A stretch of DNA of 61,220 nucleotides, filler included, from Basidiobolus ranarum (Eukaryota): the NCBI GenBank assembly GCA_040143965.1. It is 2 parts of 2 records of this genome, joined end to end, with 100 filler letters (N's around TTAATTAATTAA, not from the genome) between each part and the next. Parts side by side here need not be neighbours in the genome. Positions count along the whole stretch, not along the records: positions 30,702 to 61,220 come from JASJQH010006974.1; 1 more part is not named here. One strand, 5' to 3'. The notes beneath the pieces were generated by a model. The model was not told where the DNA came from. It worked only from the letters and a program-made list of their open reading frames with translations, and searched no databases. Every line of letters begins with the position of its first letter. Position 1 is the stretch's first letter. Positions 21,601-59,166 of this stretch are shown one piece after another. Position numbers and translations under genes: made by a program.

Positions 21601-22814
21601 ATTCTAGAAGTTTGGTAAGCATATAGGTGATTTATAATAATGTATAAGAGATAAGCTCCAACATTCAGTGCTTAGAAATGTGTCCAAGTTTCGCAATATC
21701 GAGGGCCTGGAAATAGTCACTGGTAAAATACCAATTTACAAGAATGTGAGCTCAAAACTAATTTAAGAGTACTAAATACAAATGTCAGTAACGTCATTAA
21801 AGATAGCGGAGTCCCTTCATAATGTCAGAGGCTTTTTTCTGAGCTCTGATTAAACTGTGTGTTAAATAGAAAGTTGAATCATTGGGTGAATTCAAAGATA
21901 TGACATTAAACATCAATTGAAAAAAGTGAATCAGTTATGTGCAAAAGTGTACCCTATAAATACTAAGTATGCACTCATGATTTCGGTGGATACCAATGGA
22001 ACTTGGATATAATGTTACAATCTACCATTTTGTAGACAATGGAGTGTATCTCAGTTGAGGCAATATTAATGTTTGTTGGATTCCGCGAAAGTTTTGTCTA
22101 CAATATTTTATGTCGAAAAGTTTGCTAGTTACATAACTAATTGCAGTCAGATTCTTTCTAATCACAACTTGGGAATGCAAAATGAGCTTCACAAACCGCT
22201 AGAATCTTTTCTATGCCTGTGATCTTAATCAGGTGCACAGTTTGATTGGTCTTCCACCAAGTGTGGTAATATTTGCATATAGTAGATAGAGCAACTTGAT
22301 TGTTTAACGTTTGTACAGGATTGAATTTACCATGTCACATAGTCATCATCTTTGGGAGTTTTGTACTGTTAATTGATAGCGCAAGTTTTACTTTGATACT
22401 GTCATATTGGTTCTGGGTATCCAGTATTTCACTTTTATCAGTACATGTCAGGTTAGTCCTCTAGTTCATGGTATTCATGTGGTCAGTTGTACAAAATGTC
22501 ATATTCACTAAAGTTTCACTCCGTGAGAAAGTGTAAACTAGAGTTCAGAATCTCTCACGATCTGATTATTGTCTGCGTTAAGAACGGGTTTTGGTATGCC
22601 AATCAATGATACACCCTGGTCACGGGATACATGTTGGTATATCAGTGTTACACATGTGCAATACTTAAGTCCAAGTTCATTTAGCTATTCACAGTCGATA
22701 GTATAAAAAAATATAGCACTATCTTTAGATATTTGTTGTTTGAGGATCTAATTATATATTGGGTTTAGTTTATTCGAGCTTTGAAGTATTAAGTAAATTA
22801 AGATACAGAAATGT

Positions 22815-32703: not shown

Positions 32704-35051
32704 ATGGATTTTCCTGAGCTAATCCGAAAACTTGTTAAGGATATAGAGACTCAAAATCCATACTCAAAAAAGTTTACTGATTATCATTTGCGTGAGTGGA
32801 CACCGTTAATTTACACCTTAAAACCCAGCTGGACTAGGTGAAGAATAAACTTTTCCTTTTTTTTCAGAGATTTGTTCAGCTAAGATTATTATCATTTTCG
32901 TTTAGTTCGGAATTTACTACTTTTACCGACGTACTACTTGCTGTCATATGTTCAACACAACAGTGTGGACTTTCAGAAGTCGCAAGCATTCAGGTAGCGT
33001 TTGGAAGCGTGTATGATATATTTATTTAATTGACTAAAAGGTTCAAATTTGACCAAATTGATAAAGTTCAACTGCCGTTTTACCCTAGAGGTTTTGAGTT
33101 CGAGTTTATGGGAGTGTATTTGTCCTGACTCGTATACTTCGTTGCTTCGTATGATTCATCAAGTTCAAACTGAAGAAGAAGAATGTAAGTAATATTGAAA
33201 TCTAGGATATTTACACCACTTGAAGTTTAACATTCTCAAACGAAATTTCTTCAAGTTATATGTCGTTCCCTTCTTTATGAGTTTTTCTTGGAGCATATTA
33301 AATCTGGAGGAATACAAAGTCCCGTCTTGAGTTGGATATTGAATTTTCTCTTGGAAGAATGTTCCCAATTTTTCTTCGAGTTCCCCGGAACCGAAGATAT
33401 TCGAGAAGAATTTTTGACTACTTTAGGAAGGGTAATTATATGAACATTTTCCATTCCTCAAAGTTCTATTATGTACTCTAGATAAAGTTGACTTACTATC
33501 TTACCCTCTATAGATTAGCCTCATTAGTGGTTACGATGATGTTGAGTTGAAGGATACTGTAGACCGATGCATCGCCCGTTTTGACAGAAGGGAATTCGTA
33601 GATCATGTTCAGCTACAGATTCAGAAACATATAAGTACCAAGTATGCTTTTCAAATGACCATATCATCATGATATCTCAACTCCGATCGGTACTAAAGGA
33701 TTTAACTGTAGGCTTAGAATGTGCATTGACGAACTAGAACAACTTGTGAACACACCCTCAAGAATGCAGCAAACTGCATGGCATCTATCAAAGGTTCAAA
33801 CATGAACAATCGCATAAACAGACACGTCCTTTATACTAACACAGTAGATACTCTGAGTTTAGATATTAACCTCGAAGGATATATATGACTGTGCACCATT
33901 GAGATTCCTGTAAATTGATTTATTCATGATATATGCATCATGGTCCATCCCATTTACATCCACATTTCCTGAATCCTAGAATCCAGTACTACGCTGGGGA
34001 ATTTCCAGATCAAGTATATCCCACTATAGACTATATGAGAGTACTGGGTACATTTGGCAAGCAAGAGACCCAGAAGGTGAGTTCTTTCTCATAAGGTATA
34101 TGTAAGTGCTGTAAGACTCACCCACTTTGCACCTTAGCTAAAACCACCGAAATGGCTTACTATATTTTGTTCAAGTTCCTTTGACCTTATCAAATTTGAA
34201 GTTGATTTGGGTCTTGGTATGGAGTCCATGTTGGAAGAGGATTTCGATAATGTACGGATATTTCATTTAACCTTTGCCGCGATGAATACCAACCAACATG
34301 AATTCTCTAGTGGATAGATTTTAGCGACTTTGAGGATTTATGGAAACCTGACGATTTAAATATTGCCATCTTAAGTAATCATTGTGAATATAATCATCGA
34401 CTTGTTGTGTTGGAAATTGGCGAGATACTTGGCAACACTTTAAACTCTAGGTTGGTCCAGTCCTATGTCATTTTTGTAAATCTTACGCGACTAACATCCA
34501 TATTTTGTACTTAGAATGTACTCAAGGTTATTAAGCGCATTAGGATTGATCAGTAATAACTTGTCTATCAACACCGACAATATGGAGGAGGTATAAATAG
34601 GTTGTTAAGTGACATCATGATCTAGCACTTACCTTTTCTTCCACAACAATAGACCCAAGAGTTGTCCAGACTTTTGTTAGATGTTTGGATTCATTCGATT
34701 CAACATTCAAATACCATATTTCATCGACTAGGGGAAGATTTGGAATTCGAGAAATATTTCAAAATAGCATGCGGAACATTTATATGGACTTGGAATTTTA
34801 ACCTATCTACAAGTATCAATACGGATTCTCATCTCATACTGCTGTTGAATCGATTGATACAATTACACGAGTACTATGAGAAGCATATGACATCGTCATA
34901 TTCCACGTTGCTCGCTTGTTTGATCAATAAGTTGGCTATGGAGTGTCCATTAGAGAGCCTACAGACAGAGACTATCTCTGATGTGGTAAAATTGTATCCT
35001 AACTTGTTATGGTTGATACGAGAACGTCTTGATAATCAGTCAAGCATATAG
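32704..35051 (+). CDS. Uncharacterised multi-exon protein (probably helical); family not recognised
   Basis: ATG at 32704 (MDFPELIRKLVKDIETQNP), a regular series of short GT..CTAAC/CTCAC..AG introns, last exon ORF 34662-35051 and an AATAAA just after the stop. Divergent from RPL12. Confidence 0.6.
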
Positions 35052-54817: not shown

Positions 54818-57800
54818 TTATTCATAAGGTTTCGTCTTGGGATGTTTCGTTGATATTCCAATTGGAGGGAATTCAAGAGGAGAATTTGAAATCTGATAGT
54901 TCCTTCTGTCAATATTTGGTTGGGGGTTATTAGATCCATAGCTTATCCCTCGTGGCGGGAGGGAAGGAAAAGAGGAAGATTCCAAGAATATTTCATCTTC
55001 ATCGGTGGATGAACCACTAGGGTTATTCTTTAGTTTAGGTGGATTCCAGGTGACGGAATGTGGTTTTGGATAGTCTGAAAATTCATTCTCTGATTCTGGC
55101 CAGTCGTAGCTATCTTCATTCAGAGGCATTGAAACTGGACTTTCTCCACTCTCTGCATTCGACCTCGTATTATGTTCATGAATCACTCCTAAATCTACCA
55201 AAACATCGTTCCGGGTATCGTTTGTTCTACGCTCCTTATTCATATTAACATCACTGCCTAAAGATAAAGTGACATTTGTATCCATCGCATCTAGTATATT
55301 TTCTGCATGGAACTCTCATTAATATATACATAGTTGGATGATGCATCGTTGGTGGATTACCTTCAAGTAAAGCCGGCAGATTAGGGTCATTAGATTTTGC
55401 ATTCCATCCTGGAAGGTATTCCCTGTTATTCATCAAATATGGGTCAGAGACATGGTCGTGCTCTATACTACTATAGACAACTTACACCCCATAGGGAACT
55501 GTACACTGGTTAATGGCATTTAGCTTTCTGGCCAACGGTAAATGCAATGTTTCATCCCAATTCTCCAGTTTGTCAGGACTCATATACGTCTGAAAGTCGA
55601 ATTGTCTTGAGCTCCACAACGAAACATATGGTAATCGACAGCAAACAGTTTCTACTTCATGAATCCAACTAATAATTAACATTAACACATATAGATGCGT
55701 GAGAGGAAGAGTCAATTATCGATAACATTACCCTGAGTCTGGCCATTTGACGTTTGTATCTCCATGTTCGACACCCTTAATTAAGCTGCATTTAGTACTA
55801 TTCAATAAACTGGATTAAGCTACATACTTCCACAACACCAAGGACCTCACTCCAGTCGGCATTTCTGGATAACGACCATTCAACTAAATCAGAATAAGAC
55901 CCCGATAGAGTTTCTACTGTATAGGTCCTCCCTACGCAACATTATGAATTTTCAAGTCAGAAATGAACGTTTGAGATCAACAAACCATTTTTCTTCATCG
56001 CTTTGTCGTGTTTCTCGACAGTTATACGGCATAGTGTGAGTATCCCACCAGTGCTAAAGTATAATATGTCTTGAAGATGTAGACCTGGTTGAGTAGCTGT
56101 TATGGGTATGTTGGCTATTTCACTGGTGACTGGCTGAAAATAGTTGATCATTGCTGTTTGATGACTATGGTGTTGAGTGGCGGTACTTCCGGATTGCGAG
56201 AAAGGCAGCAAAGGATCGCAGCGAATTTGATCTTTGCCATGCAATTCTCGATTTCTGATCCGTAGAAATGGCTTCAATGCCTTGGGAGATTCGTGGGAAT
56301 CAAAAGTTTCACCAAATAGACGCGTTGGCCACCTATTGAGACTCCCTAATAACGGGCTAATTGTATATACATCTGTTGGTTTAGTCAAGGATAATCACAG
56401 CATCAAATAAGCAATCAGGTATAGCTTTAGTAAGGATACGGGATGTGCCACGAACAGTGTTGATTGAAACCCATTTGGAATCTTGACTGAATGTAATGTT
56501 CTTGATTTGTGCCGAAGTGTATCCCCTATAAAGCTCACATCTAGTAATACGTCAGTTTTCCGATCTGGACAAACTTGGAAACAACTTGTTAAGATACCTC
56601 CGAATTCCGTTCCCTAAATGCTCATCATTTGCATTGACTGATATTTCATATATATATGCACAATATCCTCCTACTGGTGCAATGGCAATTAACGAGCCAC
56701 TGGGGCTGAATGCAACAATATCCAAGCTCTCCTCGCCAACCTCAAAATATCCCACTTTACATAAATGACGTATATCTTGTGCCCGAGTATTCGTCAAAGA
56801 AATAACTCCAAGTTTATCAAGATCAAAAATGATCACCTTTATGTGACAAGTATTAGATGACATATTAAGTAAATTACCAACCATATCCTATTTCAAACCT
56901 GGTTCGAATGAGGTTGGGGTAACTGGCTTCTACGACTGTCTTCTGGATTCTGTCGATAGCTGTTCCAATAATTAGATAGCTTACGATAGCCCAAATCACC
57001 TGTTAAACAATCCTTATTAATACCCTGAAGACTGCCCACACTACGTCTTGAATAACAGACCTATACTTTTCATTCCTAACAAAGCCTCATGAGCAACTTG
57101 AGTCACGTTGAGCCCATTTCGATCCTGCGATACGGGCTCATAGCTCATATTGTAAGACTCATCTGTAGTGACATACGCTAATAGGCGATTTCCAACTGAT
57201 AACACTGGTAAGTTTTCGGAATTGGGATGTGCATCATTCAATTTAAAGATAACTTGGAGCGTCTTGGGCGAGATCACTTCTATGGTTGAGCCGTGATACT
57301 ATTTGATAAGATATTAGGCTAGCTACAGTGAAGTTGACATACTAAATATACACCAACCACAACGATTCCTCGTTCACAACATTCGACACCTAAGCCACAT
57401 TCAACCGAGTAATTTAGATTTTTAACGATCTTGTGAGTCTGCAGAGAGAAGAAGCACAGGGTGGATCCTTGTACTTTTGCGCCTTCAGTCTTTCGCATGC
57501 TGGGTATTGAAGAATTAGCAAAAATACTAAGTATTCAGCTACTGATTGATAGCCTACCTTATCGCGAGAATTCCTCGCTGGTTCTTAAAACAGTCTTCAT
57601 TATCAGTAGCTCTAGGTGTTGGAACATTCTATTGATAATAAGATGTGAGAAATTTCATTTACGACTCTAGATTTGCTTAGAGTGAGAGAGGTAACCTTAA
57701 TGCAAAATACATCGTATTCCTCTTTTCTACAAGAAATAATTTCGGTGATATTGGAGAGATCAGACAGATCCCACACTTGAAATCCATCATGATATCCAAG

Positions 57801-58431
57801 AATCAAGCAAAATTTCCTACAATAAAGGCCACTTAACAAGCGATAATAGAAAATCAACCACTATATTCTACTAACCGCTGAGGATGAGTGAAGGTTTTTT
57901 CAGCATCAGATACGTGATCCTGTGAAGTTCGATAGACTCCCTCAATCCAATCAAAAGAAGCACATGTCACCACACTTCTAGGCTCGACACTTACTGTGCC
58001 ATCTTGATCAAAAGTTTCATAAGCTAAGTTCTCAGGCTCTTCGTTTAATTTCGGTGGTGTGGCTATACTTTTCATCTTGTTCAAGGTTTCTGGTAGATTG
58101 TTGTATACATACGTAGATATCCCTTGTATTATAGTGGTCACCTTTTCTTTTTTACTTACTCTGAGAAGTATCAATATTAGTAAGAATCAAATATAAGGTT
58201 GAACTTTTAGAAATACAACTTCAAAATCTTCGGCTCAGCTTTTACACCTGGTGAGAAGGAAGTAGTAATGTTGCCAACATCTACAGTAGGTGAGGCCAAG
58301 GGCGATAAAATAGTGCCATTCTTTAGTGGTGAATTGTAAAGAGATAGACCGTAATGAGAATCAGTTTCTGTGTCGACCTCTGCCACCTCATTGGAGAGAG
58401 TCGCAAGTCTTGGAAATTGAAATGACGCCAC
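54818..58431 (-). CDS. BCAS3/ATG18-like WD40 beta-propeller protein (multi-exon, 5' end uncertain)
   Basis: LILGYHDGFQVWDL, LSVGNRLLAY, IVAFSPSGSLIA, ELYRGYTSAQIKNITFSQDSKWVSINTVRGTSHVYTISP, WSLSRNADWSEV and WIHEVET..SLWSSRQFDFQTY match BCAS3-family motifs. Confidence 0.85.
56373..56439 (-). other. U12-type (minor spliceosome) GT-AG intron
   Basis: 5' site GTATCCTTA, branch site TATCCTTGAC followed by only 11 nt to the end of the AG, and no polypyrimidine tract. Removal restores RGTSH-VYTISP. Confidence 0.9.
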
Positions 58432-59166
58432 TTTGGAAAACTGACTCGACTAGTGGTTGACAAAGTGTTGCTCTGCGAACGGATTAATTTAGTAGAGCAA
58501 ACTCAAGAAGTGTACAAATAATCAATAAGCGATTGAAAGTTAAAGATATGAGGGGTTTTAGGGTGGTAGTCTTGTTAAGATTAAGAAATTACTATTCTGG
58601 ACGGGCACATAAATACTGACAGTCACGCAAAAAAAAATTTGGTAAAAGCTCAGATTTAATCGAAACTCTCTAGTATTTAACTTTCAATACATGCTCGTAC
58701 ACTATTGGACTGAATTTTAAGGCAGTCACTCATTTAACTATTCGACCGTATATCGCCCAATCAACACACAATCAATGTACAGTTGTGGAGAAGTATAATA
58801 TCAGAAATGGGGTAGTAAACTTGTATCCGGAAATGGGGTGGACATTTGATCTAAGGCCATATTACTGTTTGTCATTAGTGCGTATATGGTTTGAAGATAT
58901 AGTTTGTATACATGGTCTCTGTTGTATACATATACAGATCCACCCTTTGGACCTGGGAATATGGATTAGTCCAATCACAAATGCTGCTTAACCCTAACCC
59001 TACATAGCAATCTACACCGAATCCGGTACTTATTGCATGAGGTTTTATTGGAATCATTGTTGTTATTTCACTAAAGTATATTTGTATTGCTTCTCGATTG
59101 GCTCTTATGCATGCATGATATAATGGTTGTCAATATGCTTACTGTGAATATTGCGTTGGTTGATAG

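Follow-up and report, generated by a model that had tools for sequence, protein, structure and literature searches.

Does the minor spliceosome remove one of the introns of a BCAS3-family gene in Basidiobolus ranarum, an early-diverging fungus of the phylum Basidiobolomycota? The question is raised by a stretch of genomic DNA of 61,220 nucleotides (nt; assembly GCA_040143965.1), which we refer to as the window and along which all positions are counted. An initial annotation had placed a U12-type intron of 67 nt on its minus strand. Having followed this up, we consider it very probable that this is a genuine U12-type GT-AG intron in a gene for a BCAS3-family beta-propeller protein and that it is spliced out by the minor spliceosome.

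The annotation started from the premise that Dikarya are without minor splicing and that some early-diverging fungi retain it. This agrees with two published surveys. In the first (Larue & Roy 2023, PMC10639083), Ascomycota and Basidiomycota have no convincing minor introns and B. meristosporus has 249, which at 0.554% of its introns is the highest density so far in fungi. The second (Olthof et al. 2024, PMC11347168) gives 237 minor introns (0.5%) for the same species. For fungi of the zoopagomycote lineage it reports U11, U12 and U6atac with high confidence; its U4atac, from B. meristosporus, is putative and divergent and emerged at a lowered threshold only. The annotation had also credited B. 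ranarum with a working U11/U12/U4atac/U6atac system, for which these published data on its lineage are indirect support. One minor intron in a gene-dense window of 61 kb is about what would be expected if about 0.5% of introns were minor.

The intron, its signals and its junction

The features of the locus are listed here, with the evidence for each in brackets.

56373..56439, minus strand: intron 8, very probably U12-type of the GT-AG subtype, 67 nt, phase 1 (sequence, splice mapping of the deposited protein, junction conservation)
56432..56439, minus strand: 5' splice site GTATCCTT (match to RTATCCTT; one of two occurrences of GTATCCTT in the window)
56384..56391, minus strand: predicted branch-point box TCCTTGAC, presumed branch A at 56385 (match to TCCTTRAC)
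56373..56374, minus strand: 3' splice site AG (sequence and splice mapping)
56381..56383, minus strand: in-frame TAA, the stop reached upon retention (stop-to-stop frame)
56440..56540, minus strand: exon 8, 101 nt, encoding ..CELYRGYTSAQIKNITFSQDSKWVSINTVRGTS and the first base, C, of the His405 codon (splice mapping, conservation)
55986..56372, minus strand: exon 9, 387 nt, opening with AT of the His405 codon and continuing VYTISPLLG.. (splice mapping, conservation)
54818..58437, minus strand: host gene of the BCAS3 WD40 family (the deposited model spans 58075..55731, a paralogue can be aligned between 58437 and 54833, with an open frame up to a stop at 54818-54820)

The exon downstream of the intron belongs to the NCBI protein K7432_003289 of Basidiobolus ranarum (583 amino acids), with 100% identity over the aligned 94% of the query, and this protein was the sole match at E ≤ 0.001 among 182 candidates. 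It matches the Pfam family PF21034 (BCAS3 WD40) over residues 316-473 with 74.6 bits against a cut-off of 26.3 (E 7.7e-21); Pfam searches with single exons of the gene gave nothing beyond a sub-threshold WD40 match. Mapping K7432_003289 onto the window yielded ten introns of 52-67 nt, the eighth of which, at 56439..56373, splits the codon of His405 as C|AT.

On the minus strand, the reading across this intron is ..GGCACATCCC|GTATCCTTACTAAAGC...GATTATCCTTGACTAAACCAACAG|ATGTATAT.., and the coordinates, strand, length, phase and quoted letters of the initial annotation all match the sequence. The donor, C|GTATCCTTAC, has its first base at 56439 and agrees with the U12 consensus RTATCCTT at 8/8 positions, with AC next. 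The box TCCTTGAC at 56391..56384 is a perfect TCCTTRAC, which also agrees with the U12-type branch pattern TCCTTRAY; its role as the branch point is predicted from this consensus. The presumed branch adenosine at 56385 lies 12 nt from the last intron base, the G at 56373, and in U12-type introns the distance from the branch site to the 3' splice site is about 10-15 nt. The acceptor reads AACAG|AT, and the terminal dinucleotides GT..AG are those of a U12-type intron. The two signals described earlier, a perfect donor and a TCCTTRAC box near the 3' end, were thus both found, and all the features that define a U12-type intron at the level of sequence were tested and are present.

We also compared the junction with that of relatives. 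A phmmer search of 1.84 billion representatives returned 558 relatives at E ≤ 0.001, of which the best 150 were used, and in most of these best 150 of 558 matches the aligned stretch spans residue 405. A 60-residue segment around the junction was then aligned with 147 of 150 other proteins, which consisted of the listed phmmer relatives and one further relative. Residue 405 is His in 146 of the 147 aligned relatives and Thr403 is identical in all 147, while residues 401-409 are covered by 146 of the 147 with a single gap character in total. This conservation, in a nearly gapless alignment, fixes the junction independently of the splice motifs. The phase-1 junction had been said to rebuild a conserved motif, and at this point the deposited protein indeed reads ..NTVRGTS-H-VYTISP...

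The comparison indicates that the 67 nt are a real intron, which would be excised from the message at exactly 56439..56373, because these boundaries are needed for the conserved strand R-G-T-[ST]-H-[VIL]-[FY], the length is not a multiple of three and there is an in-frame TAA at 56383..56381. The bases on either side permit no shifted equivalent junction, so the junction is unique. Retention of the intron adds 19 residues (RILTKAIPDCLFDAVIILD) ahead of the stop, and the corresponding stop-to-stop frame (56381..56551, minus strand) reads ..NTVRGTSRILTKAIPDCLFDAVIILD. A message that kept the intron would probably give a truncated protein or be degraded.

How often such signals occur by chance was estimated within the window. 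RTATCCTT is present 9 times (6.3 ± 2.6 expected; at least 9 in 24 of 100 shuffles) and TCCTTRAC 8 times (4.1 ± 1.9 expected; at least 8 in 5 of 100 shuffles). A donor, a branch box and a nearby AG within 1000 nt occur together twice, and at least one such combination was seen in 25% of 300 simulated windows. Single motifs are therefore at chance level, and the pairing of motifs alone is insufficient as evidence. A relaxed scan, which allowed at most one mismatch per motif, introns of up to 400 nt and a branch A 8-20 nt from the 3' end, gave 34 donor-acceptor combinations. Only 56439..56373 is free of mismatches; every other combination has one mismatch in each motif. The joint probability of finding both motifs at the ends of an ordinary intron is about 9.5e-8, which corresponds to about 0.004 expected cases among about 45,000 introns, a number rounded from the published 249 and 0.554% for B. 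meristosporus. The signal exceeds chance because both motifs are perfect at an intron that is fixed by homology, because no other combination in the scan is without mismatch and because this joint probability is so low.

Two other candidates were rejected. The motif pair at 33557..32719 (minus strand) spans 839 nt, more than ten times the length of the introns of the host gene, and runs antisense to what is apparently a gene on the plus strand, with GTAAGT donors in reverse complement, so we take it as a chance match. It includes the other occurrence of GTATCCTT (33550-33557, minus strand), which has no partner within normal intron length. The candidate at 22612..22562 (minus strand, 51 nt, GTATCATT..TTCTTAAC) is mismatched in both motifs and sits downstream of where the nearest minus-strand frame stops; it was likewise attributed to chance. 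The whole window contains 88 N bases, and its GC content is uniform at 37-40%.

The host gene and the choice of spliceosome

The nine other introns of the modelled gene provide a local standard. Their donors are GTTAGT, GTTACC, GTAGGC, GTTGGT, GTCTGT, GTTTGA, GTATCT, GTTTGT and GTATGT, all of the U2 type recognized by the major spliceosome, and the TCCTT box is absent from all nine. The annotation had described the other introns as U2-type, and this holds for these nine, albeit with loose and variable donors. It had also pointed to the lack of a pyrimidine tract. This is true, with 11/20 pyrimidines before the acceptor, but it is not diagnostic, since the nine U2-type introns have 9-14/20. Nor is the spacing of the branch site diagnostic on its own in this fungus, as U2-type introns here can have a very short distance from branch to AG. 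Intron 7 (56541-56597, minus strand) opens with GTATCTTAAC, which agrees with the U12 donor at 7/8 positions; it is without a TCCTT box, and its branch, CTGAC, and its AG are about 12 nt apart.

From its signals, we infer that intron 8 is removed by the minor rather than the major spliceosome. Its phase fits this, since minor introns are reported to be biased away from phase 0, with on average 22% in phase 0 (PMC10639083). Several points weigh on the other side. Removal of the intron is itself deduced from protein homology. No Rfam family reached its gathering score in the window, the only DNA to which that search applies. Even in the congener B. meristosporus, U4atac is no more than putative (PMC11347168). 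The U2-type donors of this gene are also loose, with C at +5 in two of the nine (GTTACC and GTATCT, the latter that of intron 7), so the sequence leaves room for use of GTATCC by the major spliceosome.

The last point leads to an alternative, namely that the U12-like motifs are present and the major spliceosome nevertheless removes the intron, which would then be minor-like or in the course of conversion. Besides donors that lack G at +5, this draws on the short distance between likely branch and AG and the weak pyrimidine tracts of the neighbouring U2-type introns, which suggest that the major spliceosome of this fungus tolerates a similar architecture. In addition, intermediate classes of minor-like and hybrid introns have been described (PMC11347168). 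However, both motifs of intron 8 are perfect over 8 + 8 positions, a coincidence with a chance of about 1e-7, which implies selection through pairing with U11/U6atac and U12. The genus is moreover published as rich in minor introns, with minor small nuclear RNAs (snRNAs) reported in fungi of its lineage (PMC10639083; PMC11347168), and we regard removal by the major spliceosome as very improbable. That there is no intron, or that the deposited model has the wrong junction, is hardly credible. The model is imperfect in that it is short at both ends, but a length of 67 nt is not a multiple of three, a stop stands in frame inside the segment, only this junction restores R-G-T-S-H-V-Y, with its His shared by 146/147 relatives, and the flanking bases allow no equivalent junction elsewhere.

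BCAS3 is linked to autophagy, and a further proposal concerns what the intron does. The initial annotation had suggested that it may limit the rate of expression of an autophagy-related gene; in this case slow minor splicing, retention and a premature stop would together act as a bottleneck on output. The stop 19 residues into a retained intron would suit such a role, and minor splicing is tied to proliferation in animals and plants (PMC10639083). In Rhizophagus, however, the one fungus rich in minor introns for which this was examined, proliferating cells retained modestly more of their minor introns, not fewer, and minor splicing showed no rise in them (PMC10639083). The sequence offers nothing to set this intron apart from a constitutive minor intron. 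We therefore find the suggestion unsupported and a bottleneck unlikely. Intron 8 would take its place among the few hundred minor introns to be expected in the genus, with no need for a special regulatory role.

The order in which U11, U12 and U4atac/U6atac.U5 act in minor splicing is well established in general. Applied to this intron, the U11/U12 di-snRNP (a double small nuclear ribonucleoprotein) would recognize it as a unit, with U11 pairing with the rigid donor GTATCCTT and U12 pairing with TCCTTGAC so as to bulge the branch adenosine 12 nt from the 3' AG. The U4atac/U6atac.U5 particle would join next, and U6atac would replace U11 at the donor. The short, fixed distance from branch to AG would select the acceptor, which would make a pyrimidine tract unnecessary. 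Removal would join C|AT and so create the invariant His of the propeller strand R-G-T-[ST]-H-[VIL]-[FY]; failure of removal would lead to the stop after 19 residues.

The gene itself appears to extend beyond the deposited model. The species has another gene of the BCAS3 family, K7432_011183, which is 53% identical; compared with this paralogue of 992 amino acids K7432_003289 (58075..55731) is short at both ends. On the N-terminal side, the paralogue aligns to extra exons at 58437-58222 and from 58159 onward, and there is no in-frame ATG ahead of the 58437 exon in the window sequence. On the C-terminal side, it aligns at about 55715-55485, 55420-55356 and 55303-54833, and the stop of the model (PDSG*) falls at G|GTAATG near 55730, which is likely to be a donor that the model missed. 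The frame 55485-55715, which lies outside the deposited model, reads WIHEVETVCCRLPYVSLWSSRQFDFQTY. The paralogue aligns here too, and the reading is similar to the relatives' consensus, with its motif W-L-S-x-V-E-I...L-W-x-x-P-Q-F-x-F of the C-terminal BCAS3 domain; Pfam gave no match for this frame at E ≤ 0.1. B. meristosporus also has at least two genes of the family, K493DRAFT_335147 and K493DRAFT_408339.

Age of the intron

The intron had been called probably ancient. We searched with an alignment of 10 proteins and obtained 55 genomic loci encoding BCAS3 relatives. Of these, 39 read uninterrupted through [RK]-[GE]-T-x-H-[VI]-F, a further 12 are uninterrupted with the variants K-[PAR]-T-V-H or N-R-T-V-H, and four (L025, L028, L030 and L031) stop short of the site. 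Thus, an intron of any type at the His codon was found in none of the 51 loci that reach it, a count that favours the intron-less state because one of the two search patterns starts at the His codon. In the unbiased subset of 13 loci with the upstream pattern, nine reach the site and all nine are continuous. When the Basidiobolus protein was used as the query, 50 loci were unbroken across residue 405 ± 6, and the match had an edge there in none. Metagenome contigs had no U12 donor that followed D-S-[RK]-W...R-G-T-[ST] at precisely this codon, which is weak evidence as that collection is mostly prokaryotic. Several of the sampled loci are near-duplicates (L011/L012, L032/L033, L028/L030), and none is a known close relative of Basidiobolus.

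As a comparison, we scored other introns of the same gene in the same way, as loci that are continuous and loci with an edge within 5 residues. The numbers were 7 and 0 for intron 2, 6 and 1 for intron 3, 5 and 0 for intron 4, 7 and 0 for intron 5, and 6 and 2 for intron 6. The control covers these five introns; introns 1 and 7 lie at the borders of similarity and introns 9 and 10 outside the coverage. Like intron 8, those introns of the gene that could be assessed are not common to these relatives. The animal-like loci (L010 and L031, which are on the same contig, L025, L028 and L030) have in common a boundary of an exon that follows ..AKV and lies upstream of the His codon by about 22 residues; beyond it comes either an intron of several kb or the end of the DNA. 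Basidiobolus is without an intron at that position.

With no intron at the site in 51 of 51 loci that reach it, antiquity is unsupported, though not disproved, and the data fit either a loss of the intron elsewhere or its gain on the branch to Basidiobolus. To our knowledge, gain of minor introns has rarely been documented. Lineage-specific gain of this U12-type intron on the branch leading to Basidiobolus is a tentative reading that we think doubtful but worth retaining, because the minor-intron density reconstructed for the Zoopagomycota ancestor is low despite the high density in Basidiobolus (Larue & Roy, PMC10639083). It is weakened by the fact that the gene's remaining assessable introns are unshared too, by the near-duplication among the loci, by the absence of a known close relative from the sample and by the lack of a second copy of the intron in the window. 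An origin from a repeated, introner-like element was rejected, since a blastn-short comparison of the intron with the window gave only chance matches of 10-15 nt.

Significance and comparison with known minor introns

The result adds one more well-supported minor intron, in a second species of a genus that already holds the published fungal record for them. It is of modest practical value and leaves the known distribution of minor splicing unchanged. Published text linking B. ranarum to the minor spliceosome, or BCAS3 to a minor intron, was not found in our search, which covered searchable text. Literature combining Basidiobolus or BCAS3 with U12 yielded nothing relevant beyond the two surveys, other papers having been judged by title. 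Many minor introns of Basidiobolus are already in print, and what is new, as far as searchable text goes, is this intron in B. ranarum; the orthologous intron of B. meristosporus may already be catalogued.

The intron may be of use in two ways. A substrate of 67 nt with perfect signals and a premature stop as the read-out of retention suits tests of whether minor splicing in Basidiobolus works with no U4atac other than a divergent one. It is also a defined site at which a comparison with K7432_011183, the paralogue, and with the genes of B. meristosporus could address a gain of minor introns in Basidiobolus. If true, lineage-specific gain would be the more interesting outcome.

Set beside known systems, the host protein has the near-invariant block of the BCAS3 family (PF21034), L-x-R-G-x-T...D-S-R-W...R-G-T-T-H-V-F. 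The host gene differs from the 51 genomic loci of relatives that reach the His codon in that it has an intron there. The intron resembles the U12-type GT-AG class in its donor GTATCCTT, its box TCCTTGAC 12 nt from the 3' AG, its GT-AG ends and its non-zero phase. Compared by sequence alone, it shows no difference from that class; it is short (67 nt), like all the introns of its gene (52-67 nt). The closest known set is that of the minor introns of B. meristosporus, which belongs to the same genus, with a density of 0.5-0.55%, and is another species.

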